A DNA stretch of 64,000 nt from Pseudomonadota bacterium (lineage in GTDB: Bacteria > Campylobacterota > Campylobacteria > Campylobacterales > Sulfurimonadaceae). This document shows positions 3,134 to 64,000 of this stretch, piece after piece. Numbering within the stretch: the first letter of the stretch is position 1; each line of letters opens with the position of its first letter. The stretch spans positions 64,001 to 128,000 of the forward strand of contig JAZDQA010000006.1 of assembly GCA_043797085.1 (NCBI GenBank), read 5' to 3'. Position numbers and translations under genes: made by a program. A model generated the notes under the pieces. The model worked only from the letters and a program-made list of their open reading frames with translations. It made no database searches and had not been told where the DNA came from.

Positions 3134-3189
3134 TTCTAAACCTTTTTCGATATAATCATCATATTCTAGCCAATTTACAAAGGTTATCC

Positions 3190-4628: not shown

Positions 4629-5980
4629 TGGCAAAGAAAAAAACAACCCTTTTCGAATGTCAACACTGCGGTTTTACCACTCCTAAATGGATGGGGAAAT
4701 GTACCAACTGTGGTGGTTGGGACAGTTTTGTTGAGCTGAATGAACAGCAGCAGGATATTATCAAACTCACCTCTTCATCATCACCCTCAGATGCTTCCAA
4801 AGCCAAAGAGATTACTAAAATCCAAGAAGAGACGACAGAGCGCTACAGTAGCGATGATGCTGAACTTGATATGGTACTTGGCGGCGGGATTGTTCCGGGG
4901 TCGTTGGTGCTTATCGGTGGGAGTCCCGGGGTTGGGAAATCGACGCTATTGCTCAAAATCGGTTCAAATCTCGCTCGTCAAAATAAAAATGTATTGTATG
5001 TATCAGGAGAAGAGAGCGAGGGGCAAATCAAACTGCGCGCCAACCGTTTGGGTGCGAATGTCGATAATCTCTATCTCTTGGCTGAAATACGACTGGAACA
5101 AGTTCTCTCCGAATTGCATGAGAGAGCTTATGAGTGTATCATCATTGACTCCATTCAGACCCTCTATTCCGAGTCCATAGCGTCTGCTCCCGGATCGGTA
5201 ACGCAAGTGCGCCAAATTACTTTTGATTTAATGCGTATTGCCAAAGAAAGACGTATAGCGATTTTCATCATCGGGCATATTACCAAAGAAGGCTCGATTG
5301 CCGGACCACGGGTACTAGAGCATATGGTCGATGTCGTCCTCTATTTCGAAGGGGACAGCGGTCATGAACTTCGTATTTTACGGGGCTTTAAAAATCGTTT
5401 TGGTCCTACGAGTGAAATTGGTGTTTTTGAGATGCGTTCGGAAGGACTTATGTCGGCAAAAGATCTCTCCTCACGTTTTTTTAATCGCAATAAATCTCAG
5501 AGCGGATCTGCTTTAACGGTCATTATGGAGGGATCGCGCCCCATCGTCTTAGAAGTGCAAGCACTGGTAAGTGACACTCATGCCCCAAATCCCAAACGCC
5601 AAGCAACGGGATTTGATAACAATCGCCTTAATATGCTTTTAGCACTCTTAGAGCGTAAACTCGAGATCCCTCTCAACAGCTATGATGTTTTTGTCAACAT
5701 CACCGGCGGTATCAAGATCACAGAAACCTCTGCTGATTTAGCCATTTTAGCTGCCATTATTAGCAGTTTTCGTAACCGTTCTATTTCTAAAGAAACGGTT
5801 TTTATCGGTGAAGTCTCCCTCGTAGGGGATATTCGTGAAGTCTATCAGCTTGATCAGCGACTTAAAGAAGCACATTCTCAGCAAATCACAAAAGCACTGA
5901 TCCCGAAAAAACCGCTCGAAAAAACCGCCATTAAATGCTACGAAATTGATGAAGTCAGTAAGCTATTGGAGTGGTTTTAA
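4628..5980 (+). CDS. radA: DNA repair protein RadA/Sms
   Basis: CxxC-CxxC zinc finger, GSPGVGKST, KNRFG motif. Confidence 0.97.
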   Translation: MAKKKTTLFECQHCGFTTPKWMGKCTNCGGWDSFVELNEQQQDIIKLTSSSSPSDASKAKEITKIQEETTERYSSDDAELDMVLGGGIVPGSLVLIGGSPGVGKSTLLLKIGSNLARQNKNVLYVSGEESEGQIKLRANRLGANVDNLYLLAEIRLEQVLSELHERAYECIIIDSIQTLYSESIASAPGSVTQVRQITFDLMRIAKERRIAIFIIGHITKEGSIAGPRVLEHMVDVVLYFEGDSGHELRILRGFKNRFGPTSEIGVFEMRSEGLMSAKDLSSRFFNRNKSQSGSALTVIMEGSRPIVLEVQALVSDTHAPNPKRQATGFDNNRLNMLLALLERKLEIPLNSYDVFVNITGGIKITETSADLAILAAIISSFRNRSISKETVFIGEVSLVGDIREVYQLDQRLKEAHSQQITKALIPKKPLEKTAIKCYEIDEVSKLLEWF

Positions 5981-6025
5981 CGCTTCTAAGCTATAATAAG
6001 CCTATTAAACCAAAGGACATTTACC

Positions 6026-6298
6026 ATGACAGAATGCTCTATTATTGCAGATCATAAATCCGAAGAACGATACACTAAACTTTCACTTGCTTATTCTACA
6101 CAGCAAGAAAAAGAACAAATTGAAGATGCCATTTCACAATGTACTACAGAATGTTCTGTTCAACCCATTATTTATGGCGGGGATGTAATCGGTGGGAAAA
6201 AAATGATTACCATCGAATACCATGATGATTGTGATCGTGAGGGAGGCGCTGTCTATGAAAAGATTTTATGCACTCTTGGGATCAAAGAATGTCATTAA
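6026..6298 (+). CDS. Small Cys/His/acid-rich hypothetical protein overlapping the carbonic anhydrase start
   Basis: 90-aa ORF with AAGGA RBS and an upstream TATAAT (5992-5997). Confidence 0.7.
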   Translation: MTECSIIADHKSEERYTKLSLAYSTQQEKEQIEDAISQCTTECSVQPIIYGGDVIGGKKMITIEYHDDCDREGGAVYEKILCTLGIKECH

Positions 6299-6969
6299 GC
6301 CGTAACAGCTCGGATAAAAGTGCTCAACTTCTTCAGGAATTTGTAAAGGGAAATGAAACTTTTCAACAAACTTATTTCAAAAAACATGAAGAGCAACTCC
6401 TTAATCTTGTCCAAAATGGACAAAATCCTCGTGCCTTATTTATCGGATGCTCAGATTCACGGGTTATCCCCGATCTGATTGTTCAGACACGTCCTGGTGA
6501 TCTGTTTGTTATTCGCAACGTGGGAAATTTTGTTGCACCTTATAAACCCGATGAAGATTTTCACTCAACTGCTGCCGGAATCGAATATGCCGTTGCCGTT
6601 TTGGAGGTTTCTGAGATTATTATTTGTGGACATTCTCATTGCGGAGCGATTGAAGCACTCTATAATCCTACCTGCGATACAACGATGGTTCATACGGCTA
6701 AATGGCTGACATTGGGAGAAAAAGCAAAATCAATGGCGATGATAGCTTTAGGTGACAATGCACCTCGCGAGGAATTGCTTCGGGCAACAGAACAGCTTTC
6801 CGTTGTGACCCAAATTGAAAATCTTCTCACCTATCCGTATGTAAAAAAATTAGCGGAAGAAGAAAAACTTTTTATCCATGGCTGGTACTATGACATCGAA
6901 ACAGGTGCCATAGAATATTATGATCCTGAAATATTTCAGTTTCGCCCACTTAGTGAGCTTGGGGAATAA
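6289..6969 (+). CDS. Beta-class carbonic anhydrase
   Basis: CSDSR and HSHCG zinc ligands, RNVGN, GWYYDIETG; likely start at ATG 6289. Confidence 0.95.
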   Translation: MSLSRNSSDKSAQLLQEFVKGNETFQQTYFKKHEEQLLNLVQNGQNPRALFIGCSDSRVIPDLIVQTRPGDLFVIRNVGNFVAPYKPDEDFHSTAAGIEYAVAVLEVSEIIICGHSHCGAIEALYNPTCDTTMVHTAKWLTLGEKAKSMAMIALGDNAPREELLRATEQLSVVTQIENLLTYPYVKKLAEEEKLFIHGWYYDIETGAIEYYDPEIFQFRPLSELGE

Positions 6970-7764
6970 TTACCAATCCAAATACAAAAATAACGATGAC
7001 ATAAAGTAGTTGGCAATAAAGATTGCTACTGCTGAATAAACAACAGCATAGATCGTTGATTGTCCTACCCCTCGTGCTCCGCCTGTTGTGTTGTATCCGA
7101 TATAACTTCCAATAGCACTTACAATCCATCCAAATACTGCGGCTTTAATAACTCCGGTCATAATGTCATTAAGTTCACCAAATCGCATTACGGTATCTTG
7201 ATATGCGATAGGATTTATCCCAAGCGCACCCGTTGAAATAAAATACGCGGATGAAACAGCAATAAAATCGAACCATATAACAAGCAAGGGAAGAGAAATC
7301 ACAGTTGCAACAATTCTAGGTACCAATAGATACTCTTTTGAATCGACCCCTAAGATATCAATCGCATCAATCTGCTCACTCACTTTCATCGTCCCAAGCT
7401 CTGCAGCCATTGCACTAATGGAACGAGAAATAAGCATCAATGAGGCAAATACAGGTCCAAGCTCTTTGGTGATTGAGAGAAAAATCGTGTATCCGATAAA
7501 ACTTTCAATACCAAATTGATGAAATCCGCTGTACAGCTGAATTGCTTCCACCATTCCCGTAAACAATGCAGTGAGCGTTACAACACCCACACAGCCAAAT
7601 CCGATAATATCTATTTGAGTTAAGAGAATTGTTGGGCGTTTAAAAACTTTTGGATAAAGACGAAGTAGTCTAATCTGAAACAAAATAAACACGCCAAAAC
7701 GCTCAAGACTCTCAAATAGTGATAAAAAAGGACGTCCAATAAATCCAAAAATTGACTCAATCAT
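6970..7764 (-). CDS. mlaE: MlaE-family ABC transporter permease
   Basis: KELGPV, AAELGTMKVSEQIDA, GGARGVG motifs. Confidence 0.9.
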   Translation of the reverse strand: MIESIFGFIGRPFLSLFESLERFGVFILFQIRLLRLYPKVFKRPTILLTQIDIIGFGCVGVVTLTALFTGMVEAIQLYSGFHQFGIESFIGYTIFLSITKELGPVFASLMLISRSISAMAAELGTMKVSEQIDAIDILGVDSKEYLLVPRIVATVISLPLLVIWFDFIAVSSAYFISTGALGINPIAYQDTVMRFGELNDIMTGVIKAAVFGWIVSAIGSYIGYNTTGGARGVGQSTIYAVVYSAVAIFIANYFMSSLFLYLDW

Positions 7765-14229: not shown

Positions 14230-15189
14230 ATGTCTCTTTTAGAACATGTAGATGGAGCCACAAATCTGGCAAAAAATAATGAAGTACAACTTCTGATCTT
14301 TAAAGTAGATGCTGCCGAAACATCTGCTTATTACGCCATTAACGTTTTTAAAACACGAGAAGTTGTAGAGGCCAAACATCATCAGTTAACCCTTATCCCC
14401 TCTCCTCATCCATTACTGGAAGGAACCATCGTCTTACGCGGTCTTCAAATCCCCATTCTTAATCTTCCAAAATGGCTGGGATCTGAGCTATCACCTGAAA
14501 AGAAAAAACTTTCCAATCTTTTGATATGTGATTTTAATGGCATTATTATCGGTATACGTATCATGTTTGCCTACCGTGTTATCAAGAAAAACTGGAATGA
14601 GATGCATGCACCCGATAGCTATCGTCTTGGCGAAGACGGATTGGTTATTAACGATACAAGACTCGATGATGGAAGTTTGTGCTTGGTACTCGATTATGAA
14701 AAATTACTCGCAGATGTCATTCCCCAAGCAATGGTCAATGTTTCAGAATCACCTAATAATTTAGCCAATATTGTGATTCCGGATAAGTTAAGAAACGGAA
14801 CCGTTTTAATTGCCGAAGATTCTAAAACTGCCCAACGTCATCTACGTCAGGTTTTTGCAAATGCTCATCTCTCCTATCAAATTTTTAACAATGGTAAAGA
14901 ATTGATAGATTTTGTCAATGCGCATCCAAACCCTTCTTCCATTCCCGCTATCATTACGGATATTGAGATGCCGGAAATGTCAGGTTTTACCGTTGTCCGC
15001 CTTTTAAAAGCGAATGCCGCAACGAAATCTATCCCCATTATCGTCAACAGTTCAATGACAGGTGAAAATAACAAACGAGAAGCAGCAGGATTAGGGGCAG
15101 ATGGGTTTATTGATAAGACAAAGAGTCACGATATCATTCCGCTGATTGTCAGTAAGATGGAAAGTGCTAGACAATTGCAGCTAGCATAA
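14230..15189 (+). CDS. cheV: Chemotaxis protein CheV
   Basis: CheW domain (YAINVFKTREV) plus receiver domain (AEDS, TDIEMPEMSG). Confidence 0.92.
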   Translation: MSLLEHVDGATNLAKNNEVQLLIFKVDAAETSAYYAINVFKTREVVEAKHHQLTLIPSPHPLLEGTIVLRGLQIPILNLPKWLGSELSPEKKKLSNLLICDFNGIIIGIRIMFAYRVIKKNWNEMHAPDSYRLGEDGLVINDTRLDDGSLCLVLDYEKLLADVIPQAMVNVSESPNNLANIVIPDKLRNGTVLIAEDSKTAQRHLRQVFANAHLSYQIFNNGKELIDFVNAHPNPSSIPAIITDIEMPEMSGFTVVRLLKANAATKSIPIIVNSSMTGENNKREAAGLGADGFIDKTKSHDIIPLIVSKMESARQLQLA

Positions 15190-15194
15190 AAGTT

Positions 15195-15223
15195 CGTCAT
15201 ACTGTATCAGGTACGGTATGACG
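15195..15223. terminator. Hairpin between convergent cheV and the carboxyltransferase gene
   Basis: CGTCATACTGTA-TCAGG-TACGGTATGACG. Confidence 0.65.
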
Positions 15224-15234
15224 GGGATATAATT

Positions 15235-17064
15235 TTAGTCTACGACTGCGAGAATTTGACCAGCTTCAACTTTATCATTTACTTGTACCATAACTGCACT
15301 CAAAACACCTGAACGCGGTGCTAAAACATCAATTTCCATTTTCATTGCTTCAAGAATCATAATCTTATCGCCGGCAATGATTGGAGCACCTACTTGAGCC
15401 AAAAGTTTAAACACAGAACCCGGAAGTTCTGAACGAATAGCGTTTTCATTAGCAACAGGCGCTGCTACTACGGGAGCTGCAACTGGTGCTGCAACCGCTA
15501 CTGGTGCCGCTACTGATTGAACATTTGCATTGCCATCTACGATTTGTACGTTGTATTGTTGTCCGTCTACGATTACCGTGTAAGTACCATTTGCCATTGT
15601 GAAATTCTCCTGTTTTAGTGTTGATTGAATTGATTGAGCTGTATCAGCCGTTTTTGGGCTGTTTTTTCGAACATTTACGGTTGCTTCCCCTTTTAGGAAT
15701 GCAATCCCTTTAATATCACACGAAGCAGCGATAAAAATATTTTCATCACTGGCTTCGATTCCTTCATTTTCTAACTGCGCAGTCCAGTACGCAATTGATT
15801 TTTTCTCATCACGGTCCGCAATATCGATAGCATTATCGGTTGTCGGCTCTAATTTTAACTGTTCTGCTGCAATACGGATAACTTCAGCATCCGGCGTCGT
15901 TGGTGTTTTACCAAAATAGCCCAATACCATCTTACCGTAACCCGGAGCTATTTTTTTCCATGGTCCCATAAGAGCATTGTTAAGCGCCTGTTGGAAATAA
16001 AACTGAGACACTGGAGTAACGGATGTACCGTATCCCCCTTTTTCAACCACTTCACGCATTGCACGAATGACTTCAGGATAACGATCCAACATGTTGTTAT
16101 CACGCATCATTTGAGTATTTGCTGTCAATGCACCGCCTGGCATTGGAGAAAATGGAATTAAAGGTGAAACTTGTGTTGCTTCAGGCGGGATGAAATAATC
16201 TTTCAAACAATCGCCCAATACATCTTCGTATTGCAAGATTTTTTCAAGCTCTAAACCGCCAAGATCAAAATTCTTACCCTTGACTGCATGCAGCATTGTC
16301 AGAATATCCGGCTGAGATGTACCACCGCTGACCGGAGAGGCTGCCATATCAATACCATCAATACCTGCATCAAGCGCTGCCATATAACACGCAACGCTCA
16401 CACCCGCAGTTTCATGCGTATGAAGACGTAAATGCGTCCCCTCAGGAACAAGACGACGTGCCATTTGAATGGTTTCATACACTTTCTGAGGGCTTGATGT
16501 TCCGCTGGCATCTTTGAAACAAATCGAGCTGTAAGGGATACCCGAATCTAAAATCTCTCGAAGCGTTTTTTCGTAAAATGCAACATCATGAGCACCCACA
16601 CATCCTGGAGGAAGGTCCATCATGGTCACAACAACTTCGTGCTTCAAACCATGATGAACAATACGTTCACCAGAATATTTCAAATTTTCAACATCGTTCA
16701 GAGCATCGAAATTTCGAATGGTCGTTGTTCCGTGCTTTTTAAACATCTTGGCGTGCAAATCAACCATCTCACGGCTGCCCGTATCTAGCATAACCGTATT
16801 AACACCGCGAGCAAGCGTTTGGAGGTTAGCATCCGGACCTACGATAGCACGGAACTGATCCATCATATCAAACGCATTTTCATTTAGATAGAAAAAAAGA
16901 CTTTGAAAGCGTGCTCCGCCTCCAAATTCAAAATGGGTAATTCCCGCATGAGCCGCAGCTTCAACTGCCGGAAAAAAATCATTCATCAGTACGCGTCCGC
17001 CAAATACGGATTGAAATCCGTCACGGAAGGTTGTATCCATTATGTCGATATATTTTTTTGCCAT
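15235..17064 (-). CDS. Pyruvate carboxylase subunit B / oxaloacetate decarboxylase alpha-like carboxyltransferase with biotin carrier domain
   Basis: DTTFRDGFQS, HTHET, VTPVSQ, Ala/Pro linker, EAMKM biotinylation site. Confidence 0.92.
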   Translation of the reverse strand: MAKKYIDIMDTTFRDGFQSVFGGRVLMNDFFPAVEAAAHAGITHFEFGGGARFQSLFFYLNENAFDMMDQFRAIVGPDANLQTLARGVNTVMLDTGSREMVDLHAKMFKKHGTTTIRNFDALNDVENLKYSGERIVHHGLKHEVVVTMMDLPPGCVGAHDVAFYEKTLREILDSGIPYSSICFKDASGTSSPQKVYETIQMARRLVPEGTHLRLHTHETAGVSVACYMAALDAGIDGIDMAASPVSGGTSQPDILTMLHAVKGKNFDLGGLELEKILQYEDVLGDCLKDYFIPPEATQVSPLIPFSPMPGGALTANTQMMRDNNMLDRYPEVIRAMREVVEKGGYGTSVTPVSQFYFQQALNNALMGPWKKIAPGYGKMVLGYFGKTPTTPDAEVIRIAAEQLKLEPTTDNAIDIADRDEKKSIAYWTAQLENEGIEASDENIFIAASCDIKGIAFLKGEATVNVRKNSPKTADTAQSIQSTLKQENFTMANGTYTVIVDGQQYNVQIVDGNANVQSVAAPVAVAAPVAAPVVAAPVANENAIRSELPGSVFKLLAQVGAPIIAGDKIMILEAMKMEIDVLAPRSGVLSAVMVQVNDKVEAGQILAVVD

Positions 17065-54594: not shown

Positions 54595-55173
54595 TTAATC
54601 AAAATTTTTAATTAGCATTCTCTCTTCTTCCAATGTAAGGTAACGCCACTGACCGATTTCAATGTCGAGTTTAAAACTGCCAATACTGATTCGGTTCAAG
54701 TCTAAGACCTTTAATGGCGTCCCAAATTTCGGGTCTTTCAGCGCCCCAAAAAGCCGACGGATATGCCGATTCTTTCCCTCGTCAATTACAACCTTGAGTT
54801 TTGTTTTCGCGCCACCAATGCTTATCTTTTCGACTTCAAGAGCTTTTAGTAGACCGTGTGGGCTTTGGACGCCTTTCAAAGACTGCGCAATATGGTCGTC
54901 TGTTACGTGGCCTCTGACCCAAATCTCGTATACCTTAATACAATTCCCAGGTTTGGTCAATGCATCGCCGATTTTACCGTTAGTTGTGAATAATAGAAGC
55001 CCTTTAGATTCTAGATCAAGGCGTCCAATTGGCATCCATTCATCATAAAAAACCCAGTCAGGCAAAAGATCATAAACTGTTTTTCGCCCAAGTTCGTCAG
55101 ATCGTGTGACCACGTAACCCTTAGGCTTATTGAGTACTAATAGTTTTTTCGAATAGGGCGTTGTTTGATTCAT
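54595..55173 (-). CDS. RsuA-family pseudouridine synthase without S4 domain
   Basis: LNKPKGYV, GRLD.ES.GLLLFT, EGKNRHIRR. Confidence 0.9.
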   Translation of the reverse strand: MNQTTPYSKKLLVLNKPKGYVVTRSDELGRKTVYDLLPDWVFYDEWMPIGRLDLESKGLLLFTTNGKIGDALTKPGNCIKVYEIWVRGHVTDDHIAQSLKGVQSPHGLLKALEVEKISIGGAKTKLKVVIDEGKNRHIRRLFGALKDPKFGTPLKVLDLNRISIGSFKLDIEIGQWRYLTLEEERMLIKNFD

Positions 55174-55289: not shown

Positions 55290-56060
55290 TCAAGATCCAA
55301 TAGTGTCATAGCTTTGTGGTGAAATTTTATACCCTATTTTTGAATAGCATTGAATAAAATCTTTTGGCAGTTTTTGTCGTATTCTAAACATCAATGATCG
55401 AAAAGCACCTTCTCCGACTAACTCCCCATCCCAAACAAAATCTTCAATTTGTTCTACGCTAACAACTTTTCCCAAGTATTTTATGAGTAGTTTAAGGAGT
55501 TTTTTTTCTTTATCATTCAAATCGCATTCTTTGCCATTAAGCATTAAAGTAAAATTCTCATTATCATAGATATAGCCATTGTGCAAATTAATCAAACGCA
55601 TCTTCGATTGTTTGTCTATGTCTAGTTTACTTTGAAGAGATATGTTTTCACTCTTGATTTCGATGATTGTTGATGCTAATTTCTTGTTTTCGGTAAATGT
55701 TTTTAATGCAATTTCCACAGCAGTTTTTAATTCAATTTCTTTAAATGGCTTAAGAATATAGCCATAAGGTTTTATATTGATAGCTCGGTCGATGGTCTTA
55801 CTTTTATCATTAGCCGTTAAAAAAACAATGGGGACAGAGAGCATTGCAGATATTTTTTCGGCAACTTCAATCCCATCCTCTCTGTCTTGCAGGGTGATGT
55901 CCATAAGAACAAGATCTGGAATTTTTGTACTTGCAAGATGCAGTGCTTTAGCACTGTTATTGGCGATCCCTACGACTTCGTACCCAAAGTCGATTAATAT
56001 TTCTTTGATATTTAGAGCAATAATACTTTCATCTTCGACAATTAAAATTTTTAGTTTCAT
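55290..56060 (-). CDS. Response regulator (receiver, coiled coil, OmpR-type winged helix)
   Basis: IVEDE, DLVLMDI, GYILKPF; C-terminal VW......FRSLMFRIRQKL..I....KIGYK; ATG 56060 overlaps the kinase stop. Confidence 0.9.
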   Translation of the reverse strand: MKLKILIVEDESIIALNIKEILIDFGYEVVGIANNSAKALHLASTKIPDLVLMDITLQDREDGIEVAEKISAMLSVPIVFLTANDKSKTIDRAINIKPYGYILKPFKEIELKTAVEIALKTFTENKKLASTIIEIKSENISLQSKLDIDKQSKMRLINLHNGYIYDNENFTLMLNGKECDLNDKEKKLLKLLIKYLGKVVSVEQIEDFVWDGELVGEGAFRSLMFRIRQKLPKDFIQCYSKIGYKISPQSYDTIGS

Positions 56061-57358
56061 AAGTTCCCTTTCTCTTTGGGGATAAAAGTGATGGAGCATT
56101 TAAACCCATCTTGGGAGTCCGTCACTATTTCACCATTTAACTGGAATTCTGTAATGGTGTTGATAAGTTGACAGCCAAGTGAAGTTGATGTTTGGATTTT
56201 TTCATGGTTAATTCCGATTCCATTGTCATTTACACCAAACACAATCGCTCCATCAACTCCATTTTTAATAAATATGGTAATTATCCCGCTATCCAAATCG
56301 ACAAATGCATGTTTAATAGAATTTAAAAAAAGTTCATGAACGATTAAAGCCACTAGAATAGCAGAATCCATCGTCAAAAATATATTTTCAGTATCCAAGA
56401 TTACAGATATTTTTTTAGTTTGAGCATATAAGTCCACCATGGAAGATGATAATCTATCAAGATGAATCTTCATATCGATTGTCGCTAAATCACTATTTTT
56501 GTAAAGCATTTCATGTACAAGAGCTATTGCATAGATACGGCTTTGGCTTTTTGAGAGAGCATCTTTTACTTGCTCATTGGTTTCTCGTCGGTTTTGCATT
56601 TGCAACAGTGAAGAGATTACTTCCAAATTATTTTTGACACGGTGATGGATTTCTTTGATTAGCACTTCTTTGTCTTGCAGAGAATTCTTTAGAGCTTCAT
56701 TTTGTTCAATAATCATCCTTCGTCTTTCTTTTTGTTCGGTAATATCTCGACCAAATGAGCAAATAAATTCTTTTGATCCATCGCAAAAATAACTTGCAGT
56801 AACCGAAGCTGGAAAAACACTCCCGTCCTTTCGAGTTTGCTGGCTTTCAAAGCAGATGTATTGTTTTTCTTTGATTTGTGCTAAAAAATCTTGAGTATTT
56901 TTGGTGTAGTCGGGATCAATATCGCTTAACTTCATATTTAACAATTCATCTTTACTGTATCCAAGCATGAGACATGCAGCATCATTTACGTAAAAAAAAC
57001 GTGTATCAAATGTAAACCAATAAATCGCATCTGCACTGTTATCGAGGGCAAAGTTAAATAACTGAAGATTCTCTTTTTCTTGACGCTGATATTCTGCAAG
57101 CTTGATTAATGCCTCTTCAGCAATTCGGGCAGTACGTCTAAGTAAAAAATATATAAAAATGGCTGACAGTACAAAAAATACGACACCAACGAGAAATGGC
57201 AGTCCGAAGTTATTGTTTCCAGAATGAATCATATTGATAGAAGCTCTGTCTACAACAGCAACGCCAATCACTCCGACAATGGCAAACACTACTGCTTGTA
57301 TCTTTGCTCTATTTACAGTTGACATTTTTAAAAATGAACGCTGAATTTTATCTATCAA
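56057..57358 (-). CDS. PAS-domain sensor histidine kinase (HisKA_2 type)
   Basis: Two TM helices, PAS (VNDAAC.MLGYS, RKDGS.FP), KEIHHRVKNNL H-box, DNGIG. Confidence 0.92.
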   Translation of the reverse strand: MIDKIQRSFLKMSTVNRAKIQAVVFAIVGVIGVAVVDRASINMIHSGNNNFGLPFLVGVVFFVLSAIFIYFLLRRTARIAEEALIKLAEYQRQEKENLQLFNFALDNSADAIYWFTFDTRFFYVNDAACLMLGYSKDELLNMKLSDIDPDYTKNTQDFLAQIKEKQYICFESQQTRKDGSVFPASVTASYFCDGSKEFICSFGRDITEQKERRRMIIEQNEALKNSLQDKEVLIKEIHHRVKNNLEVISSLLQMQNRRETNEQVKDALSKSQSRIYAIALVHEMLYKNSDLATIDMKIHLDRLSSSMVDLYAQTKKISVILDTENIFLTMDSAILVALIVHELFLNSIKHAFVDLDSGIITIFIKNGVDGAIVFGVNDNGIGINHEKIQTSTSLGCQLINTITEFQLNGEIVTDSQDGFKCSITFIPKEKGNL

Positions 57359-57477
57359 TTAAATTCCTTAGATCTTTAATCAATTTGTACACTTAAATTA
57401 CATTATTTTACCTTATACGCGCAATGAATAGCTATTTTAGTAATGTTTATATTTAATTCATGGATGAAATATCCATA

Positions 57478-57496
57478 TGCGAGTTTTATGCGAGTT
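57478..57496 (+). promoter_or_regulatory. Tandem direct-repeat operator TGCGAGTT-N3-TGCGAGTT upstream of the cytochrome c gene
   Basis: 11-bp period; TATATT -10-like hexamer 8 bp downstream; box starts 64 bp before ATG 57542; same geometry at 61915. Confidence 0.8.
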
Positions 57497-57541
57497 TTTT
57501 GCTTTATATTTACTGTGTTCAAAGTTAATCAAGGAGGTTAC

Positions 57542-57868
57542 ATGAAAAAGTTGGCTTTAGGTCTACTCTTAGTTACGTCTTCCATTTATGCGGTGGAATT
57601 AGGTAAGAATTTTAAATTCGAGAATGGTGAACATGCTTATAAAAGCGTTTGTTTTCACTGTCATACACTCAAAACTGCTCCACAGTCTATTTTCATAAAA
57701 ATGGATGATGATGCAAGTATTAAAGCACGCGCTGAGGGAATTTTTCAAACGGTTCGGCATGGCAGTAATCAAATGCCTGCTTTTAGAAAATCAGAAATAG
57801 ATGATGTTGTATTGAAAGATTTGGCAACCAAATTAGCCAATGGCACAATCACTTTTACTGAAAAATAG
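57542..57868 (+). CDS. Monoheme cytochrome c, PchC-like subunit
   Basis: AGGAGG RBS, Sec signal peptide, CFHCH heme motif, VRHG..QMPAF...EIDD axial-Met region. Confidence 0.85.
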   Translation: MKKLALGLLLVTSSIYAVELGKNFKFENGEHAYKSVCFHCHTLKTAPQSIFIKMDDDASIKARAEGIFQTVRHGSNQMPAFRKSEIDDVVLKDLATKLANGTITFTEK

Positions 57869-57878
57869 GAGGCATATT

Positions 57879-58457
57879 GTGATTAGAAGAAATTTTCTCA
57901 AAAGTTCTGCAGTGGCAGTAGCAACCGCTGCTTTATATTCACCCTTGTCTGCTGCCGGATTTAGTGATAGTGCTAATCAAAAAAAGATAGCTATCGTATC
58001 CGAATCAGCCGGTGAAACCGGATACATTCACGCATTGGCAAAAAATAATAAAATGGATGACGTCATTATCCTAGGTTCCGACCGATTGAAAAACCTGCAT
58101 ACGCTGTCAGATGTGCTGGAAAAAAACAAGGGTGCATTGATCTGTGGTCTATTAGAAAACAGCGATTATGCACTTTTAAACCATGCGGCACTATCAAACG
58201 GGGCGAAATTTGTTTCTGAAACGGCACATACTCCATCCAATGCAGGAATTTCCCACACGGAAAATTCGTTCGCGAGTATGTCACTCAAAAAAGCGTTTGA
58301 TCAATTTTCTTCACTTAATACTGACCAATACGGTATCGCTCTTTCATCGTATCACACAACCGGAGCACACAATACTGTAGCTACATCAAAGCAAGTTGAT
58401 TTTGTATCCGATCACACATCGAAAAATGCGTTTGTATCTTTCGTATTAAAAGCATAA
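57879..58457 (+). CDS. Twin-arginine signal protein between the cytochrome and flavoprotein genes (pchX position)
   Basis: AGGAGG RBS, GTG 57879, RRNFLK Tat motif followed by a hydrophobic stretch ending in LSA. Confidence 0.75.
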   Translation: MIRRNFLKSSAVAVATAALYSPLSAAGFSDSANQKKIAIVSESAGETGYIHALAKNNKMDDVIILGSDRLKNLHTLSDVLEKNKGALICGLLENSDYALLNHAALSNGAKFVSETAHTPSNAGISHTENSFASMSLKKAFDQFSSLNTDQYGIALSSYHTTGAHNTVATSKQVDFVSDHTSKNAFVSFVLKA

Positions 58458-58469
58458 AAGGAATATCAA

Positions 58470-60017
58470 ATGGCTAAAAAACTGACTGCAATGCCTAAAA
58501 ATGTTTCATTGGAAACAATGAATAAGGCAATTAAAGAGTTCATAAAAATCTTGGGTGAGGAAAACGTCCTTATCGGTGATGAGGAGATTACTCCGTATAA
58601 AAAGATTATGATGGCAGTACCAATCGAAAAGCATATGCCCTCCCTTGCACTACAAGCATCTACAAAAGAAGAAGTTGTTGCTATCGTGAAAGTATGTAAC
58701 AAATACGTCATACCAATTTGGACATTTTCAACCGGTAAAAATATGGGGTACGGTACGGCAGCACCAGCTCAAAAAGGGACAGTAATTCTTGACCTTCACA
58801 AAATGAATAAAATCATCGAAGTGAATGACAAACTTTGTTACGCTGTACTTGAACCGGGTGTTACGTATCAGCAATTGTTCGACTATATCCATGAGCGCGG
58901 TCTTAAATTATGGCTCTCTTGCCCAGCCCCAAGTGCGATTGCAAGTCCTGTCGGTAACACTATGGACCGTGGTGTAGGTTACACACCCTATGGTGAGCAC
59001 TTCATGATGCAATGCGGTATGGAAATCGTTCTTGCCGATGGTTCATCCTTCAAAACTGGTATGGGTGGAGTCAAAGGTTCTACCAGTTCAGCCGTATTCA
59101 AATGGGGATACGGACCGTCTTTGGATGGTATCTTCACCCAAAGCAACTACGGTATTTGTGTACAAATGGGTATGTGGCTTATGCCGGAACCGCCAGCATT
59201 TAAACCTTTTTGTATCACATTGGATACAGTTGAAGAAGTTGAAAAAATCGTTGAAGTACTTCGTCCGTTGCGTATCGCGAATATCATTCCGAACGCATTT
59301 ACGATTGCAAGTACACTCTATGAAGCGGCAGGCGTAGTTAAACGTTCAGACTATGTTGATGGAAATCGATCCATCACAGAGGCTGAAATCGAAAATATCA
59401 AAAAAGATACCGGAATGGGTACATGGAATGTTTATGCTGCCTTGTACGGAACGGAAGAAGGAAATGCACTAAACTGGAACATTATCCAGGCAGTTGTCAA
59501 TGCGAACTTTACAAAGCATAAATTCTTGACTGCTAAAGAGATGGGTAATGACCCGGTATTTAAATATCGCGCAGACTTGATGAGAGGTTACATGACCCTT
59601 CAAGAATTTGGTCTCTACAACTGGAGAGGCGGCGGAGGAAGTATGTGGTTCGCACCGGTTTCTCCTGCAGAAGGAAAACATACCCTGAATCAATCAGCAT
59701 TGGCGAAAAAGATTTTGAACAAATATGGATTTGACTATGTTGCTGAGTTCATCGTCGGATGGCGCGATATGCACCACATCATTGACTTGCTCTATAACCG
59801 AAACGATCCGGAAGAGATGCAACGTGCACATGATTGTTACAAAGAACTTGTACTTGAATTTGCAGCACAAGGATATGGTGTTTATCGCACGAGCAGCGGA
59901 TTTATGGATCTTGTTGCGGAAACGTATGGTCCTGAAATTCGCAGCGTATTCCAAAAAATCAAACGAGCACTTGACCCTAAAGGGATCTTGGCTCCTGGTA
60001 AATCAGGGATTTATTAA
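58470..60017 (+). CDS. pchF: p-cresol methylhydroxylase-type flavoprotein subunit (VAO/PCMH family)
   Basis: STGKNMGYG, VLEPGVTY, GNTMDRGVGYTPYGEHFMMQCGME, FKWGYGP, LQEFGLYNWRGGGGSMWFAPVS, RDMHH, LAPGKSGI. Confidence 0.88.
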   Translation: MAKKLTAMPKNVSLETMNKAIKEFIKILGEENVLIGDEEITPYKKIMMAVPIEKHMPSLALQASTKEEVVAIVKVCNKYVIPIWTFSTGKNMGYGTAAPAQKGTVILDLHKMNKIIEVNDKLCYAVLEPGVTYQQLFDYIHERGLKLWLSCPAPSAIASPVGNTMDRGVGYTPYGEHFMMQCGMEIVLADGSSFKTGMGGVKGSTSSAVFKWGYGPSLDGIFTQSNYGICVQMGMWLMPEPPAFKPFCITLDTVEEVEKIVEVLRPLRIANIIPNAFTIASTLYEAAGVVKRSDYVDGNRSITEAEIENIKKDTGMGTWNVYAALYGTEEGNALNWNIIQAVVNANFTKHKFLTAKEMGNDPVFKYRADLMRGYMTLQEFGLYNWRGGGGSMWFAPVSPAEGKHTLNQSALAKKILNKYGFDYVAEFIVGWRDMHHIIDLLYNRNDPEEMQRAHDCYKELVLEFAAQGYGVYRTSSGFMDLVAETYGPEIRSVFQKIKRALDPKGILAPGKSGIY

Positions 60018-61480
60018 TGAAAGCCCGTTTGAGTTTCGTAGGAGCTGCGCTCCTCATTAGTTCTACATCGTTTGCTGCTGATACACTTTCGACGGCAATC
60101 AGTGAGGGTAAATTTACCGGAGGTGTAAGAGCACTTTACACAAATGTTAATTTCGAAAACGGCGGTGCTTTTGAAGACCGTTATGCAATCGGAACAGGAC
60201 TCAGACTTTCCTATGAGACAGCTCCGTTGTATGGTATTGCAGCAAAAGTTTCTATGTTTTCGGCAAGCGGCATGGGTTTGAATTCAAGCAATGCCAATAA
60301 AGTTGATTCGGTTTATTTTGAAAACAAACAAGTAGTCGGAACGAATACCAATAGTGTTTACGGAACAAGTGCCGACAGCTATGCTGTTTTAGGCGAAGCG
60401 TATCTCAAAGCTGCTTTCGGTAAAACATTTATTCAAGTGGGTCGAATGCAAATTGATGCTCCCTTTGCATCATCACATGATATTTACTTGGTGCCCAATA
60501 CGTTTGAAGCGGCTCAAATTGTCAATGTCAATATTCCAAATACTACATTGGTACTCGCCCATGCATCTAAGATGAGCGGTCCGGATATGGTTCAAAGCAA
60601 TAGCTTCGCAGGCTCAACGCCAGGTATCAAAGCGTCTGATTTTGTGAGTATCTCCAGAGCCTCAGCCTTCCAAGGGCTAGCGGATGGCGATGGGAAACTG
60701 AATACCGAGAAAGACACGATCGGTGCTACGGTAGCCGGAGGGATTTACACCGGATTTGAAGGACTTGTTCTTCAAGCATGGTACACCCGAGTATGGGATA
60801 TTATGGATATGCCTCATTTACAAATCGATTACAACACCAAAGTGGGTGATATCGGAGTATTCGCCGGTGCACAATGGGCAACACAAAGTGCTATCGGCGG
60901 CACGAAAGAGACGTTGGATAAACATATCGATCCGGGTCTGATTGCGCTTAACATCAAAAATATCGATGCAGAGCATACCGAAGCAAAAATCGGTGGTTCG
61001 TATAAAGGGGCTACGGCTACTTTGGCCTATGCTAACACTAAAGGGGAAGATGAAAATGCTGCACGCGGCGGATTTGTTTCTCCTGTTGGCGGAAATCCTT
61101 CTTGGGTTCGTACCCGTTATCAGTCGCCCCATTTCGGATATACAGATACGTCGTGTTATACGGGCGGAACGAAGGCATACTCGATCGGTGCAGAATACGA
61201 TTTTGGTTATACGGGGATCAGCGGTTTGAAGGGTGAAGTGAAATACCTTAACTTCAATAGAGATGAAAAATATTCATCATCACCGGGATTACTATATTAT
61301 AAATCAAATGCGTATGATGACACTGCAGCGCTTGAGGCTTCTCTTGATTATAAATCACTTTTCGGGATGAAAGGACTTGATGGCGGGGTAACACTCTTAT
61401 CCGTTGATAACAAAGATGCAGCAGGCAAAGCATCTACAGATCATACTGATTTACGCGTTGCCGTAAATTTAGCGTTCTAA
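60017..61480 (+). CDS. Outer-membrane porin (OprD-like / Campylobacterales porin)
   Basis: Signal peptide, LSYETA, LGEAYL, GRMQID.P, alternating beta pattern, terminal Phe; TAATG-coupled to pchF. Confidence 0.82.
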   Translation: MKARLSFVGAALLISSTSFAADTLSTAISEGKFTGGVRALYTNVNFENGGAFEDRYAIGTGLRLSYETAPLYGIAAKVSMFSASGMGLNSSNANKVDSVYFENKQVVGTNTNSVYGTSADSYAVLGEAYLKAAFGKTFIQVGRMQIDAPFASSHDIYLVPNTFEAAQIVNVNIPNTTLVLAHASKMSGPDMVQSNSFAGSTPGIKASDFVSISRASAFQGLADGDGKLNTEKDTIGATVAGGIYTGFEGLVLQAWYTRVWDIMDMPHLQIDYNTKVGDIGVFAGAQWATQSAIGGTKETLDKHIDPGLIALNIKNIDAEHTEAKIGGSYKGATATLAYANTKGEDENAARGGFVSPVGGNPSWVRTRYQSPHFGYTDTSCYTGGTKAYSIGAEYDFGYTGISGLKGEVKYLNFNRDEKYSSSPGLLYYKSNAYDDTAALEASLDYKSLFGMKGLDGGVTLLSVDNKDAAGKASTDHTDLRVAVNLAF

Positions 61481-61493
61481 ATCTCTCATATAA

Positions 61494-61521
61494 AGTAGAG
61501 ACGATATTTATCGTCTCTACT
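61494..61521 (+). terminator. Perfect hairpin after the porin gene
   Basis: AGTAGAGACGATA-TT-TATCGTCTCTACT followed by a T-rich tract. Confidence 0.65.
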
Positions 61522-61557
61522 CAACTTTTATCCTCTAAAATAGTACCAGGAGAGAGT

Positions 61558-61899
61558 ATGTTACTCATAGAAATATTTACAGATACCATCCTAAACAAAA
61601 AAAATCTCAAAGATTATGTAAAAATACGAAAAGAAAACAATAAACGCGGTGAATTTGATGACGCTTCGCTGATGAGAGCAGAAGAAAACCTTCAACGTCT
61701 CAAAAATGAAAATCCAGAAATTCATGATGCAATGTATGAAACTCTTGCAAAAATATATGAACGTAATATTGGGTTAACACTTGAATACCCCATTGACTTT
61801 ATTCGTCAAATTCTCAAAATGTACAATGGCTCTTTAACCCCATGCCAAGTATATGAAGAGTACCAACGGGTTTTAAACCATTATCATCATAATGCATGA
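61558..61899 (+). CDS. Hypothetical soluble protein
   Basis: 113-aa ORF with AGGAG RBS. Confidence 0.7.
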   Translation: MLLIEIFTDTILNKKNLKDYVKIRKENNKRGEFDDASLMRAEENLQRLKNENPEIHDAMYETLAKIYERNIGLTLEYPIDFIRQILKMYNGSLTPCQVYEEYQRVLNHYHHNA

Positions 61900-61914
61900 T
61901 TGAAATTTTACTTT

Positions 61915-61933
61915 TGCGAGTTTTTTGCGAGTT
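61915..61933 (+). promoter_or_regulatory. Second TGCGAGTT-N3-TGCGAGTT operator, upstream of the aldehyde dehydrogenase
   Basis: TATGAT 8 bp downstream; box starts 64 bp before ATG 61979. Confidence 0.8.
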
Positions 61934-61978
61934 AATTTATTTATGATGGACAAATAAATTAAGTCAGGAGTGTCGATT

Positions 61979-63424
61979 ATGAAAGAATACGAATTGTTTA
62001 TTAATGGAAAAAATAAACCTTCATCAAATGGAAAAATTATTGATGATATCAATCCATCAACCGGAAAAGTATTTGCCAAAGTTCATATGGCGAGTTTAGA
62101 CGATATCGAAGAAGCGATCAGTTCCGCATACGCAGCATCAAAGCTTTGGGCAAAAACTACTCCGAGAGAAAAAGAAGCTGTACTGCTAAAAGCTGCCGAT
62201 ATTTTTGAAAGTCGCTCCGATGAAATCAAAACAATATTGATGCAAGAAAGCGGTTCTGTTTATGCAAAAGCTATGTTTGAAATTGGTTTGGTTGCCGATA
62301 TTCTACGTGTAGCTGCGGGTGAAGCACGGCGCGTATTCGGTCAAACCTTTACTTCTAACGATCCAGGAGTTCTCTCTTACAGTACACGTCGTCCACTGGG
62401 AGTTATCTCTGGGATCTCTCCTTTTAATGCTCCGATGATTTTAAGTACGAAGAAATTTGCTATGGCTATTGCGGCTGGTAACGCATTTATCTTAAAACCC
62501 TCAAGCCATACGCCAATATGCGGTCTAGTTTTTGGTGAAATTTTTAAAGCAGCAGGACTTCCTGATGGTGTTTTAAATATCATTCCATGCTCAAGCTCTG
62601 TATTGGGAGAAACGTTCCAAACGGATCCTCGTATCTCTATGATTACTCTGACTGGGTCAACACGTGTCGGTAAACTTGTGGCTGCGTCGGCTGCTATGAA
62701 CTTGAAACGATGTACGGTTGAACTTGGAGGAAAGAGTCCGACTATCGTTTTGGGTGACGCTGATATTGATTATGCTGTTAATACCGCTGCGTTTAGTATC
62801 TTCTTGCACCAAGGTCAAATTTGTATGGCGGGATCAAGAATTATTGTAGAAGAAAATATTTATGATGAATTCTGCGAAAAATTTGCGGCTAAAGTTAAAA
62901 CTCTAAAAGTAGGTGATCCAGAAGATCCAACTACGATTATCGGACCGCTTATCGAAGAGGCTCAATGCCATTTTATTGATGGCTTGATCGATGATGCTGT
63001 CGCTAAGGGGGCCAAGCTTCTCTCTGGACGTGAGCATGAAGGGTGTTTTTACAAACCAACCGTTGTTTCAAACGTTACAACAGAGATGCTGATCTTCCAC
63101 GAAGAAGCCTTTGGTCCTGCTGCTGCTATTATCAAAGCACGTGATATTGATCATATTATCGAATTAGCAAATAATAGTACATACGGACTCAGTTCATCAG
63201 TTATTACGAATAATTTAAGTGCAGCTTTGAAACTTTCAGAGGAGATTCACTCAGGAATGGTACATATCAATGGACCAACCATTCAAGATGAAGCACATAT
63301 TCCATTTGGTGGAGTAAAAGAAAGCGGTATGGGTCGTGAAGGTGGTCACTTTGCGATTGAAGAGATGACGGAACTCAAATGGGTTACTGTCGAGCCGGCT
63401 GGGAACAGACATTATCCGTTTTAA
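61979..63424 (+). CDS. Aromatic aldehyde dehydrogenase (4-hydroxybenzaldehyde dehydrogenase/PchA-like)
   Basis: ISPFNAP, LTGSTRVG, ELGGKSP, FLHQGQICMA, EEAFGP, PFGGVKESG; AGGAG RBS before ATG 61979. Confidence 0.85.
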   Translation: MKEYELFINGKNKPSSNGKIIDDINPSTGKVFAKVHMASLDDIEEAISSAYAASKLWAKTTPREKEAVLLKAADIFESRSDEIKTILMQESGSVYAKAMFEIGLVADILRVAAGEARRVFGQTFTSNDPGVLSYSTRRPLGVISGISPFNAPMILSTKKFAMAIAAGNAFILKPSSHTPICGLVFGEIFKAAGLPDGVLNIIPCSSSVLGETFQTDPRISMITLTGSTRVGKLVAASAAMNLKRCTVELGGKSPTIVLGDADIDYAVNTAAFSIFLHQGQICMAGSRIIVEENIYDEFCEKFAAKVKTLKVGDPEDPTTIIGPLIEEAQCHFIDGLIDDAVAKGAKLLSGREHEGCFYKPTVVSNVTTEMLIFHEEAFGPAAAIIKARDIDHIIELANNSTYGLSSSVITNNLSAALKLSEEIHSGMVHINGPTIQDEAHIPFGGVKESGMGREGGHFAIEEMTELKWVTVEPAGNRHYPF

Positions 63425-63487: not shown

Positions 63488-64000
63488 ATGATAAATAAAC
63501 TAGCGGATATTCCGATTAACGACGTGTTAAAAAAATATATCTTTATCTTTATCGGGGCCTCTTCACTGGCACTTGGTGTCGTATTATTTTTAATTCCTAA
63601 CCATATTGTAGCTGGAGGAACTCCTGGTATATCGATAATTATAAACTATTTCACCGGAATTCCAGCAGGAATGTTGATGTTTTTAATCAATATTCCTCTG
63701 GTGCTGATGAGTATGAGATACATCAGTAGAGAGTTTGCCGTTCGTACTATTTTTTCAATCATTGTCTCTTCATCGGTGGTTGATATACTGCGTGAATACT
63801 TTCAAGTCACCGCATGGACAAATGATCCGATTTTATCCAGTATATTCGGTGGTATAGCAATTGGAATCGGTCTTGGATTTATCATTGCCGGAAACGCTTC
63901 GGCCGGAGGGCCATCTATCGTTGCCAGATTCATAGCAGATAGAATGCATTGGAAACAAAACAATGTCATCATTGCATTGGATTTCATTATTGTTATTGCT
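63488..64000 (+). CDS. YitT-family membrane protein, runs off the window end
   Basis: Manual translation from ATG 63488: FLIPNHIVAGGTPGISII...INIPL...IFGGIAIGIGLG...ASAGG..IVA. Confidence 0.8.
   Translation, partial: MINKLADIPINDVLKKYIFIFIGASSLALGVVLFLIPNHIVAGGTPGISIIINYFTGIPAGMLMFLINIPLVLMSMRYISREFAVRTIFSIIVSSSVVDILREYFQVTAWTNDPILSSIFGGIAIGIGLGFIIAGNASAGGPSIVARFIADRMHWKQNNVIIALDFIIVIA

Follow-up and report, generated by a model that had tools for sequence, protein, structure and literature searches.

The closest described relative of the system treated here is the pchA-pchC-pchX-pchF cluster of Pseudomonas putida NCIMB 9866/9869, that of p-cresol methylhydroxylase (PCMH). In the accessible descriptions of this cluster, the order pchC-pchX-pchF corresponds to cytochrome, open reading frame (ORF) with a twin-arginine translocation (Tat) signal, and flavoprotein; the accessible part of one preprint states an alpha2beta2 assembly for PCMH (10.1101/2025.09.08.674859), and that of another identifies Tyr384 of PchF as the site of 8-alpha-O-tyrosyl attachment of flavin adenine dinucleotide (FAD) (bioRxiv 10.64898/2026.01.30.702948). 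We analyzed a counterpart of this cluster in a 64,000-nt stretch of DNA (the window: contig JAZDQA010000006.1 of assembly GCA_043797085.1, forward-strand positions 64,001 to 128,000), where nine genes, the last of them for a YitT-family membrane protein, span window positions 55290-64336. We propose that these genes, carried in a Sulfuricurvum chromosome, probably make up a self-contained cassette, mobile by horizontal transfer, that oxidises 4-alkylphenols of the p-cresol type anaerobically, in a water-dependent reaction, to the corresponding 4-hydroxybenzoate.

The cassette shares with the P. putida cluster its flavoprotein type (679 bits), the Tyr-FAD site, a cytochrome partner, the intervening Tat-signal ORF and a nearby aldehyde dehydrogenase (ALDH). 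It differs in that its flavoprotein is only ~60% identical and falls in a separate Campylobacterota clade, its cytochrome and PchX counterparts are very diverged, and it adds a porin, a 113-aa ORF (ORF113) and YitT; its host, moreover, is an autotroph in which we found no downstream pathway. Regulation also differs, with a two-component pair in the cassette and a sigma-54 regulator in the pch-like cluster of plasmid pNL2. By every sequence feature tested the cassette is of the PCMH kind, differing in lineage, in regulator and in the added porin, ORF113 and YitT.

As far as the accessible descriptions go, the pcm cluster of Geobacter metallireducens GS-15 likewise brings together a Tyr-FAD flavoprotein (PcmI Tyr394), a cytochrome and ALDH genes, a likeness drawn here by description. 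The cassette lacks two further features of Geobacter pcm, its pair of flavoprotein isoforms and its membrane complex resembling cytochrome bc. BpfAB of Sphingobium yanoikuyae and the 9ffk-type Novosphingobium dehydrogenase pair a flavoprotein with a cytochrome c within the same 4-phenol-oxidising family, but their flavoproteins have Leu in the Tyr column, stand outside the Tyr-bearing PchF rows of our tree and are 42-49% identical to that of the window.

As a sequence, the cassette was already on record. Plasmid pSULKU01 of Sulfuricurvum kujiense DSM 16994 (NC_014754.1, 8023-19182) carries all nine of its genes, annotated only generically, and conserves both of the tandem boxes described below; nucleotide identity is 75-77%, with the flavoprotein 93% and the Tat-signal protein 72% identical. 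The plasmid copy differs from ours in not being chromosomal, in having its ORF113-ALDH-YitT part inverted, and in holding three extra genes (for a winged-helix regulator, an NAD(P)H-dependent oxidoreductase and a hypothetical protein, at 14245-16385) between the porin gene and the inverted unit. One protein of a Campylobacterota metagenome-assembled genome (MAG) had already been called 4-cresol dehydrogenase by its source. A literature search, with most subscription journals outside it, returned no paper tying Sulfuricurvum or Campylobacterota to PCMH.

Layout of the cassette

The features of the cassette, in window coordinates, are as follows.

55290..56099, minus strand: OmpR/PhoB-type response regulator (Pfam Response_reg 2e-22, Trans_reg_C 5.8e-10)
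56057..57358, minus strand: membrane-anchored PAS/HisKA_2 sensor histidine kinase, divergent from the cytochrome operon (PAS_9 7e-12, HisKA_2 3.8e-25, HATPase_c 6e-9)
57478..57496, plus strand: Box 1, tandem 11-bp direct repeat TGCGAGTTTTA-TGCGAGTT, a candidate regulator site 46 nt before the cytochrome c ATG
57542..57868, plus strand: monohaem cytochrome c with a Sec-type signal peptide, PchC-like (Cytochrome_CBB3 1.9e-11, one CFHCH)
57879..58457, plus strand: Tat-signal protein, putatively of the PchX family (RRNFLK motif, TAT_signal 2.4e-5)
58470..60017, plus strand: PchF-type flavoprotein without signal peptide (FAD_binding_4 7.2e-25, FAD-oxidase_C 1.4e-8)
59616..59618, plus strand: Tyr383 codon TAC, equivalent of PchF Tyr384 (translation and alignment to 1DII)
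60017..61480, plus strand: OprD-family outer-membrane porin with signal peptide (Pfam OprD 2.2e-14, 53.8 bits against a cut-off of 25)
61494..61521, plus strand: terminator-like hairpin with 12-bp stem and T-rich tail, closing the cytochrome-to-porin unit
61558..61899, plus strand: 113-aa ORF, no family over cut-off
61915..61933, plus strand: Box 2, tandem repeat TGCGAGTTTTT-TGCGAGTT, upstream of the ALDH gene
61979..63424, plus strand: cytoplasmic aromatic-type ALDH with a PchA-like role predicted (Aldedh 2.8e-164)
63488..64000, plus strand, continuing past the window edge to ~64336: YitT-family membrane protein (YitT_membrane 6e-42 for the window part, 1.1e-54 for the full ORF)

DNA likeness to the nearest named relative extends from 55322 to 64332. 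A sequence-only reading of this DNA had described a phenol oxidation module ending at 63424; the ORFs that it named are all real, at or near the positions it gave, and their Pfam families agree with its names. Three of its starts shift, however, and the conserved cassette continues past 63424 into YitT. The cytochrome c start moves from 57443 to the ATG at 57542 (108 aa), behind an AAGGAGG Shine-Dalgarno sequence, that of the Tat-signal protein from 57840 to the GTG at 57879 (192 aa), and that of the ALDH from 61970 to the ATG at 61979; we prefer the three revised starts because Shine-Dalgarno sequences precede them and the lengths of relatives agree. The translated kinase has two hydrophobic stretches at its N-terminus.

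Gene neighborhoods were compared among related loci, nine from Campylobacterota and 71 others. The regulator gene adjoins the kinase gene in six of the nine Campylobacterota loci and on pSULKU01. An ALDH relative is present in 7/9 Campylobacterota loci and in 48/71 others, whereas YitT accompanies the ALDH in 7/9 and 0/71, respectively, and is thus lineage-specific. The 113-aa ORF is always linked to the ALDH gene in Sulfuricurvum-type cassettes, with relatives only in L001 (S. kujiense) and L020-L023. The porin, also found in Sulfuricurvum-type cassettes, has only a weak relative in the PDB (OpdO, E 0.002). In all four metagenome runs compared (see below), contigs join across a 238-nt stretch of the porin gene (60816-61055), the intervening sequence not being known, and a second, run-specific replacement was seen at 61205-61346; the porin seems to have segments that vary between populations.

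Identity of the flavoprotein and its enzymatic partners

The flavoprotein has the VAO/PCMH fold, with FAD_binding_4, a C-terminal cap domain and a full-length alignment to 1DII. Among solved structures, P. putida PCMH (1DII/1WVE) is its top match at 679 bits (E 3e-203, residues 7-514, 1dii_A), followed by 9ffk (Novosphingobium-type dehydrogenase, 550 bits), 8s7p (480), eugenol oxidase (390) and VAO (350). The motif LQEFGLYNWRGGGGSMWF occupies residues 377-394, and its Tyr383 is encoded by a TAC codon at 59616-59618, exactly where the sequence-only reading had placed it. Residues Y94, E176, E379, Y383, Y472 and R473 align with PchF Tyr95, Glu177, Glu380, Tyr384, Tyr473 and Arg474, and all six are invariant in our alignment of 22 flavoprotein relatives (A1), so that a covalent FAD site is predicted at Tyr383. 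We take Tyr95, Tyr473 and Arg474 of PchF to be phenolate-binding, and we likewise presume roles for its Glu177 and Glu380.

A phylogeny agreed with the bit scores. The tree had 53 rows (quick IQ-TREE, LG+G4, with SH-aLRT support values): the window, 40 selected from a pool made up of the 80 genome-contig loci, L001 and L002, seven further Campylobacterota sequences from the genus and phylum genome searches, and five plasmid outgroups (L100-L104). Campylobacterota supplies 18 rows, which are monophyletic (SH-aLRT 98); their sister group consists of 30 rows, of Pseudomonadota, Nitrospirota and a single actinobacterium, and the two clades and the basal L100 are joined at support 100, leaving two sphingomonad and two Rhodococcus homologues outside. 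Tyr stands in the Tyr column of 48/53 rows, which make up the whole PchF-like clade, while the five outgroups have Leu, Met or a gap. Structure matches supplied labels for the tree: the Pseudomonas panipatensis protein scores 984 bits to 1DII, which places P. putida PchF in the Pseudomonas subclade, and that of Nitrosomonas europaea 777 bits. L100 (Novosphingobium sp. ES2-1 plasmid p1, 2914-4542) is the 9ffk crystal protein (1054 bits), and L101 is 100% identical to BpfA, which the accessible part of a preprint characterises as a bisphenol F enzyme (10.1101/2025.09.08.674859). The window flavoprotein is 59-62% identical to relatives on the Pseudomonas side (61% to the P. panipatensis orthologue). 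Its earlier placement in the Tyr-FAD PchF group is thus borne out by bit scores, tree and Tyr column, with VAO and eugenol oxidase compared by bit score. Eugenol hydroxylase (EhyAB) and 4-ethylphenol methylenehydroxylase were left out of the tree and are not among the PDB matches, and from the sequences compared PCMH is not separable from these two.

The ALDH groups by sequence with aromatic aldehyde dehydrogenases, as had been claimed: its best PDB match is the NADP+-dependent 4-hydroxybenzaldehyde dehydrogenase 9jw2 (391 bits), followed by vanillin dehydrogenase (381) and salicylaldehyde dehydrogenase (372). It reaches no NCBIfam equivalog cut-off, and shares 42% identity with its counterpart in the pch-like cluster of pNL2.

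One outgroup locus presents a different phenolic pathway context. L102 (N. aromaticivorans pNL1, 1809-7527) has a 42%-identical flavoprotein of His type behind a Tat-motif ORF, with UbiX, an ALDH and subunits of a non-oxidative hydroxyarylic acid decarboxylase as neighbors.

The Tat-signal protein as a candidate export escort

The Tat-signal protein (hereafter Tat protein), for which the sequence-only reading gave no explanation, belongs to a narrow family: a word search gave 34 matches, all of Campylobacterota type, a search of 1.84 billion representatives gave 10, and tblastn against plasmids matched only S. kujiense. With hmmsearch its profile finds the ORF directly upstream of pchF-like genes in proteobacterial loci (E-values 2e-7 for Paenalcaligenes L091, 5e-5 for Herminiimonas L029, 6e-5 for L028, 1.6e-4 for P. 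panipatensis L036 and 1.7e-3 for L002), and hhalign against 14 such upstream ORFs gave 96.4% probability with E 1.2e-9 over 121 columns, some of them in the signal peptide. We assign it to the PchX family on this likeness, the proteobacterial ORFs being equated with the P. putida pchX product by position. The literature search, which covered few subscription journals, gave nothing relevant, among the papers listed, on pchX or on p-cresol methylhydroxylase with twin-arginine.

The flavoprotein has no signal peptide of its own, and this arrangement recurs. We applied a scripted rule to the 81 loci with enough upstream DNA and then inspected the misses; a signal-less flavoprotein with a neighboring Tat-motif ORF was found in 72/81. 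Eight loci were missed by the rule, six of which show the motif on inspection, one is masked, and one is a Rhodococcus locus of oxidase type without cytochrome. These loci are kin, near-duplicates of the window included, so the counts illustrate a pattern and have no force as a statistical test. L100, of 9ffk type, has the only flavoprotein with its own Tat signal (a twin-arginine signal that is not in the 9ffk crystal construct); it has no PchX-type neighbor, and Leu replaces the flavinylation Tyr. It fits the escort idea as a natural counter-example.

Complex models of the Tat protein with the flavoprotein scored 0.00, 0.83 and 0.84 (median 0.83), the best of three controls scoring 0.00; partner pLDDT did not fall below 58, and the share of contacts common to the runs has a lower bound of 0%. 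The mark used was reached by 116/157 solved complexes and by 2/215 mismatched pairs, a calibration that is only rough because author-made alignments were used. The modelled interface takes in flavoprotein residues 375-384 and 387-390, that is, the loop of the flavinylation tyrosine, and Tat-protein residues 67-73 and 93-99; Asp96 of the Tat protein is invariant and its Asp68 and Asn72 nearly so, and all three lie in the interface region. Together, the signal distribution and the placement of the modelled complex on the Tyr383 face suggest an escort role for the Tat protein, with the cytochrome probably taking its place once export is done.

Such hitchhiking has a functional precedent in the FAD glucose dehydrogenase-cytochrome c complex of Burkholderia, where, according to the accessible part of the source, the small (gamma) subunit is a Tat hitchhiker, a twin-arginine protein needed in B. 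cepacia to secrete the signal-less FAD subunit (PMC6719666). The proteins are unrelated, however: gamma is all-helical, serves a catalytic subunit of GMC type and stays in the complex, whereas the modelled site of the cassette Tat protein overlaps the expected cytochrome face, implying exchange.

The fold modelled for the Tat protein is Rossmann-like alpha/beta. Beyond signal peptides we found no sequence relative of it among solved structures; its model had no Foldseek match at E <= 0.001, and in the ESM Atlas matched only unnamed clusters. With VIA-align the best Z was 6.6, to lobes of periplasmic binding proteins, within the range of common arrangements.

A tandem box in front of two transcription units

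The hairpin after the porin gene implies at least two plus-strand units, cytochrome-to-porin and ORF113/ALDH/YitT, and a copy of one tandem box stands before the cytochrome gene of the first and the ALDH gene of the second. Its consensus TGCGAGTTTTW TGCGAGTT has two matches in the window where 0.00 are expected (100 shuffles), and the pattern TGCGAG-N5-TGCGAG occurs at only these two sites in the 2.40-Mb genome, which has 678 single hexamers. The box is kept, with one or two substitutions, before the cytochrome and ALDH genes in S. kujiense (L001) and the MAG loci L021, L022 and L023; its position before the ALDH gene is kept whether the ALDH unit lies downstream, upstream or inverted. OmpR/PhoB-type regulators use 11-bp direct repeats overlapping the -35 region, and since the box too is an 11-bp direct repeat, the divergently encoded regulator is the natural candidate to act at the box. 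A scan for sigma-70-like promoters showed no enrichment (26 sites against 28.8 in shuffles).

Distribution and mobility

The flavoprotein gene is present in 7/66 genomes of the genus and in 5/401 sampled genomes of the phylum, both counts including the window's own genome. The cassette here is flanked by a pseudouridine synthase gene (psiU) and an exonuclease-NUDIX pair. We examined 13 other loci: in two cassette-less genomes of the genus the flanks adjoin, in 10 neither is within 1.5 kb, and one has the cassette. Taken together, the joined flanks in cassette-less genomes, the plasmid copy and the patchy spread indicate that the cassette is accessory, inserted here and mobile within the family. 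That the Campylobacterota sequences form a single clade speaks against a recent arrival from Pseudomonas.

The flank junction is itself a rearrangement hot spot. The pseudouridine synthase gene (54595-55173) has the opposite orientation in a near-identical Sulfuricurvum record (L020:2197-2772), and the exonuclease/NUDIX genes are arranged differently in cassette-less relatives. At L003:3689-11254 (contig C6 130689-138254), 2.4 kb beyond the right flank, lies a block with a phage-type integrase, a WYL/WCX regulator, a tubulin/FtsZ-like fragment and family-less ORFs, which may be a separate island. On pSULKU01, TraT and a HipA toxin are also encoded near the cassette.

Near-identical DNA was found in 20 public runs from 11 studies, among them groundwater, wastewater and hydrocarbon metagenomes. 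Four runs were compared in detail, and three of these (two from one wastewater study, one hydrocarbon) cover all 30 bins at 90-99% likeness.

Relatives are also frequent in chemolithoautotrophs of other lineages, which supply 27 of the 80 closest loci: Nitrosomonas (13), Nitrosospira (7), Nitrospirota (6) and Gallionellaceae (1). These organisms have complete cytochrome c / Tat-ORF / PchF-like operons, ~60% identical (L039-L099, e.g. L083:4699-7545). The Nitrosomonas counts include the N. europaea record, and several Nitrosomonas loci have an ALDH gene 2.7 kb downstream; our literature search found nothing joining Nitrosomonas and cresol methylhydroxylase. The context of the cassette is thus less singular than the sequence-only reading held, the pSULKU01 copy being published and PchF-type operons being frequent in chemolithoautotrophs.

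Host and downstream metabolism

The host genome (2.40 Mb in 14 contigs, 95.9% complete) encodes SoxB, the cbb3 oxidase subunit CcoN, NapA and the citrate-binding domain of ATP-citrate lyase, each over the curated cut-off, which marks a sulfur-oxidising autotroph of the reverse tricarboxylic acid cycle type. The nearest named records to the cassette locus are Sulfuricurvum MAGs, and one of the genus genomes searched has its match on contig 2 at exactly the coordinates of the S. kujiense plasmid NC_014754.1; as the 16S rRNA gene was not found in the assembly, relatives supplied the taxonomy. A Campylobacterota chemolithotroph had been foreseen as host, and this Sulfuricurvum, with the genes just named, is one. 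Misbinning of the contig was considered and rejected, because the genes on either side share 86-96% identity with orthologues from the genus and the cassette is present in a complete genome of the genus. Nothing pointed to a known aromatic degrader as the source of the contig.

We searched the genome for seven families of downstream pathways. PobA (TIGR02360), HcrA (TIGR03194), BcrB (TIGR02260), intradiol dioxygenase (PF00775) and LigB (PF02900) had no match; the benzoate-coenzyme A (CoA) ligase family had only sub-cut-off matches, to a fatty-acid CoA ligase and an acetate CoA ligase; and the single protein of the UbiD family is the menaquinone biosynthesis decarboxylase. The lack of ring-cleavage and benzoyl-CoA genes previously noted for the window thus extends, for these seven families, to the whole 95.9%-complete genome, with no downstream gene over cut-off. 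Nor were downstream aromatic genes seen beside the cassette in the 10 Campylobacterota loci inspected for relatives of window proteins. As no gene for 4-hydroxybenzoate use was found, the oxidation is probably incomplete.

Apart from the cassette, window positions 25048-54465 hold a glycogen/sugar block, with phosphorylase, PGI, branching enzyme, two starch-synthase-type genes, a GalT-like gene, two GH57 genes, a fused NDP-sugar pyrophosphorylase/phosphomutase, G6PD, 6-phosphogluconolactonase, Edd, Eda, glucokinase and a 995-aa GH15/phosphorylase-kinase-like protein; together they make up a full Entner-Doudoroff route in an autotroph.

Proposed working and rival explanations

From gene content, families, residues, synteny, distribution and the tandem box we infer a substrate, an electron route, an escort, a mode of regulation and a fate of the product, as follows. 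The phenol would enter through the OprD-type porin. In the periplasm the PchF-type flavoprotein, with FAD on Tyr383, would oxidise the methyl group to the aldehyde stage (4-hydroxybenzaldehyde, with 4-hydroxybenzyl alcohol as intermediate); the four electrons released would pass to the monohaem cytochrome c and on to terminal reductases fed by c-type cytochromes (a cbb3 oxidase is present). The cytoplasmic NAD(P)-dependent ALDH would then oxidise the aldehyde, and the YitT membrane protein may move aldehyde or acid. Before this, the PchX-family Tat protein probably binds the folded flavoprotein around Tyr383 and takes it through the Tat pathway, whereupon the cytochrome would replace it. Both units probably respond to the PAS kinase and winged-helix regulator, which would activate them at the 11-bp tandem box, and the incomplete oxidation probably serves electron supply, detoxification or both.

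Several points weigh against this proposal, and they bear on rivals that we take up with them. The best PDB match of the cytochrome is indeed PchC (1dii_C), but a weak one (E 0.0037, 20.4 bits), and the bit-score margin that points the ALDH to 4-hydroxybenzaldehyde is small, the scores for vanillin and salicylaldehyde dehydrogenases being nearly equal to the best. Eugenol hydroxylase and 4-ethylphenol methylenehydroxylase presumably also carry Tyr-FAD, so that the alkylphenol specificity read from the sequences compared is tentative. The physiological substrate might accordingly be another 4-substituted phenol (4-ethylphenol, 4-hydroxybenzyl alcohol, a eugenol- or lignin-type phenol, or a bisphenol) handled by the same chemistry; related flavocytochromes do use other phenols, such as BpfAB on bisphenol F in the accessible part of the preprint (10.1101/2025.09.08.674859), and the Campylobacterota clade stands apart from the Pseudomonas clade at 59-62% identity. 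We consider another substrate unlikely, as PCMH is the closest characterised enzyme by a wide margin (679 against at most 550 bits) and the six compared residues are those of PchF, whereas the BpfA and 9ffk types lack the Tyr and fall outside the clade. As for electron supply, Nap in Campylobacterota is quinol-fed, the reductases that take electrons from c-type cytochromes being Nir, Nor and Nos, and S. kujiense is described as a chemolithoautotroph. Our literature search turned up no phenol use by S. kujiense. None of the listed runs with the cassette is recorded as RNA; two are labelled RNA-Seq cDNA and may be DNA, and contigs cannot show transcription. The cassette could instead serve detoxification or tolerance of phenols in oil, waste and groundwater, with electrons incidental and no measurable energy gain: it is accessory in the genus, is plasmid-borne in a strain from the drain water of a crude-oil storage cavity, recurs in metagenomes of just such settings, and comes without assimilation genes among the seven families searched. 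Detoxification is compatible with electron harvest, however, the electrons reaching cytochrome c in an organism with a cbb3 oxidase, and a dedicated uptake porin argues for active use over mere defence; we find detoxification as the sole role rather unlikely. The incompleteness of the genome and the limit of seven families do allow for a missing or novel 4-hydroxybenzoate pathway. Yet a true aromatic degrader, using the unassembled 4% of the genome or an unrecognised pathway, seems very unlikely, given that among the seven families searched no ring-hydroxylating, ring-cleaving, aryl-CoA ligase or reductase match exceeded its cut-off, that the sub-cut-off matches are housekeeping enzymes, and that no such genes stand beside the cassette in the 10 loci inspected.

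The escort proposal meets further difficulties of the same bearing: part of the hhalign match consists of signal-peptide columns, one of the three complex runs scored 0.00, and it is our assumption that in 1DII the cytochrome docks on the face around this tyrosine. The Tat protein might rather be a stable third subunit, a periplasmic flavinylation or assembly factor, or a ligand-binding protein. Its Rossmann-like fold and its middling likeness to periplasmic binding protein lobes (Z 6.6, below the meaningful level) would suit such a role, as would the several histidines conserved in its Campylobacterota subfamily. But its cargo lacks a signal, the one relative lacking it (L100) has a Tat signal of its own, and the modelled interface covers the Tyr383 face; the purified P. 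putida PCMH is, we believe, of two subunits, without PchX. We judge these other roles improbable and retain the escort as our working proposal.

Implications

We tentatively bring these elements together in one broader reading, possible but in our view still doubtful. Sulfurimonadaceae sulfur oxidisers would use the PCMH cassette as an auxiliary 'organo-lithotrophic' electron source (six electrons per p-cresol), excreting 4-hydroxybenzoate and assimilating no carbon, and nitrifiers and Nitrospira may do so too; PchX would be the Tat escort, seated on the cytochrome-docking face. Covalent FAD attachment in PCMH needs the cytochrome, so with PchX on the docking face flavinylation would have to wait until the flavoprotein has been exported and has exchanged its partner in the periplasm. 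Since a cultured type strain, S. kujiense DSM 16994, has the cassette, the claim can be tested directly, and the cassette offers a compact system for the role of PchX, unassigned ever since the sequencing of the pch operon, and for periplasmic export of a signal-less flavoprotein.

If the cassette works as proposed, common subsurface sulfur oxidisers would contribute to cresol attenuation at its initial step, which needs no oxygen. In oil, waste and groundwater, where Sulfuricurvum is abundant, 4-hydroxybenzoate would then be passed to neighbors. The line between lithotroph and pollutant degrader would be blurred, and the reading of cresol-degradation marker genes in metagenomes would be affected.

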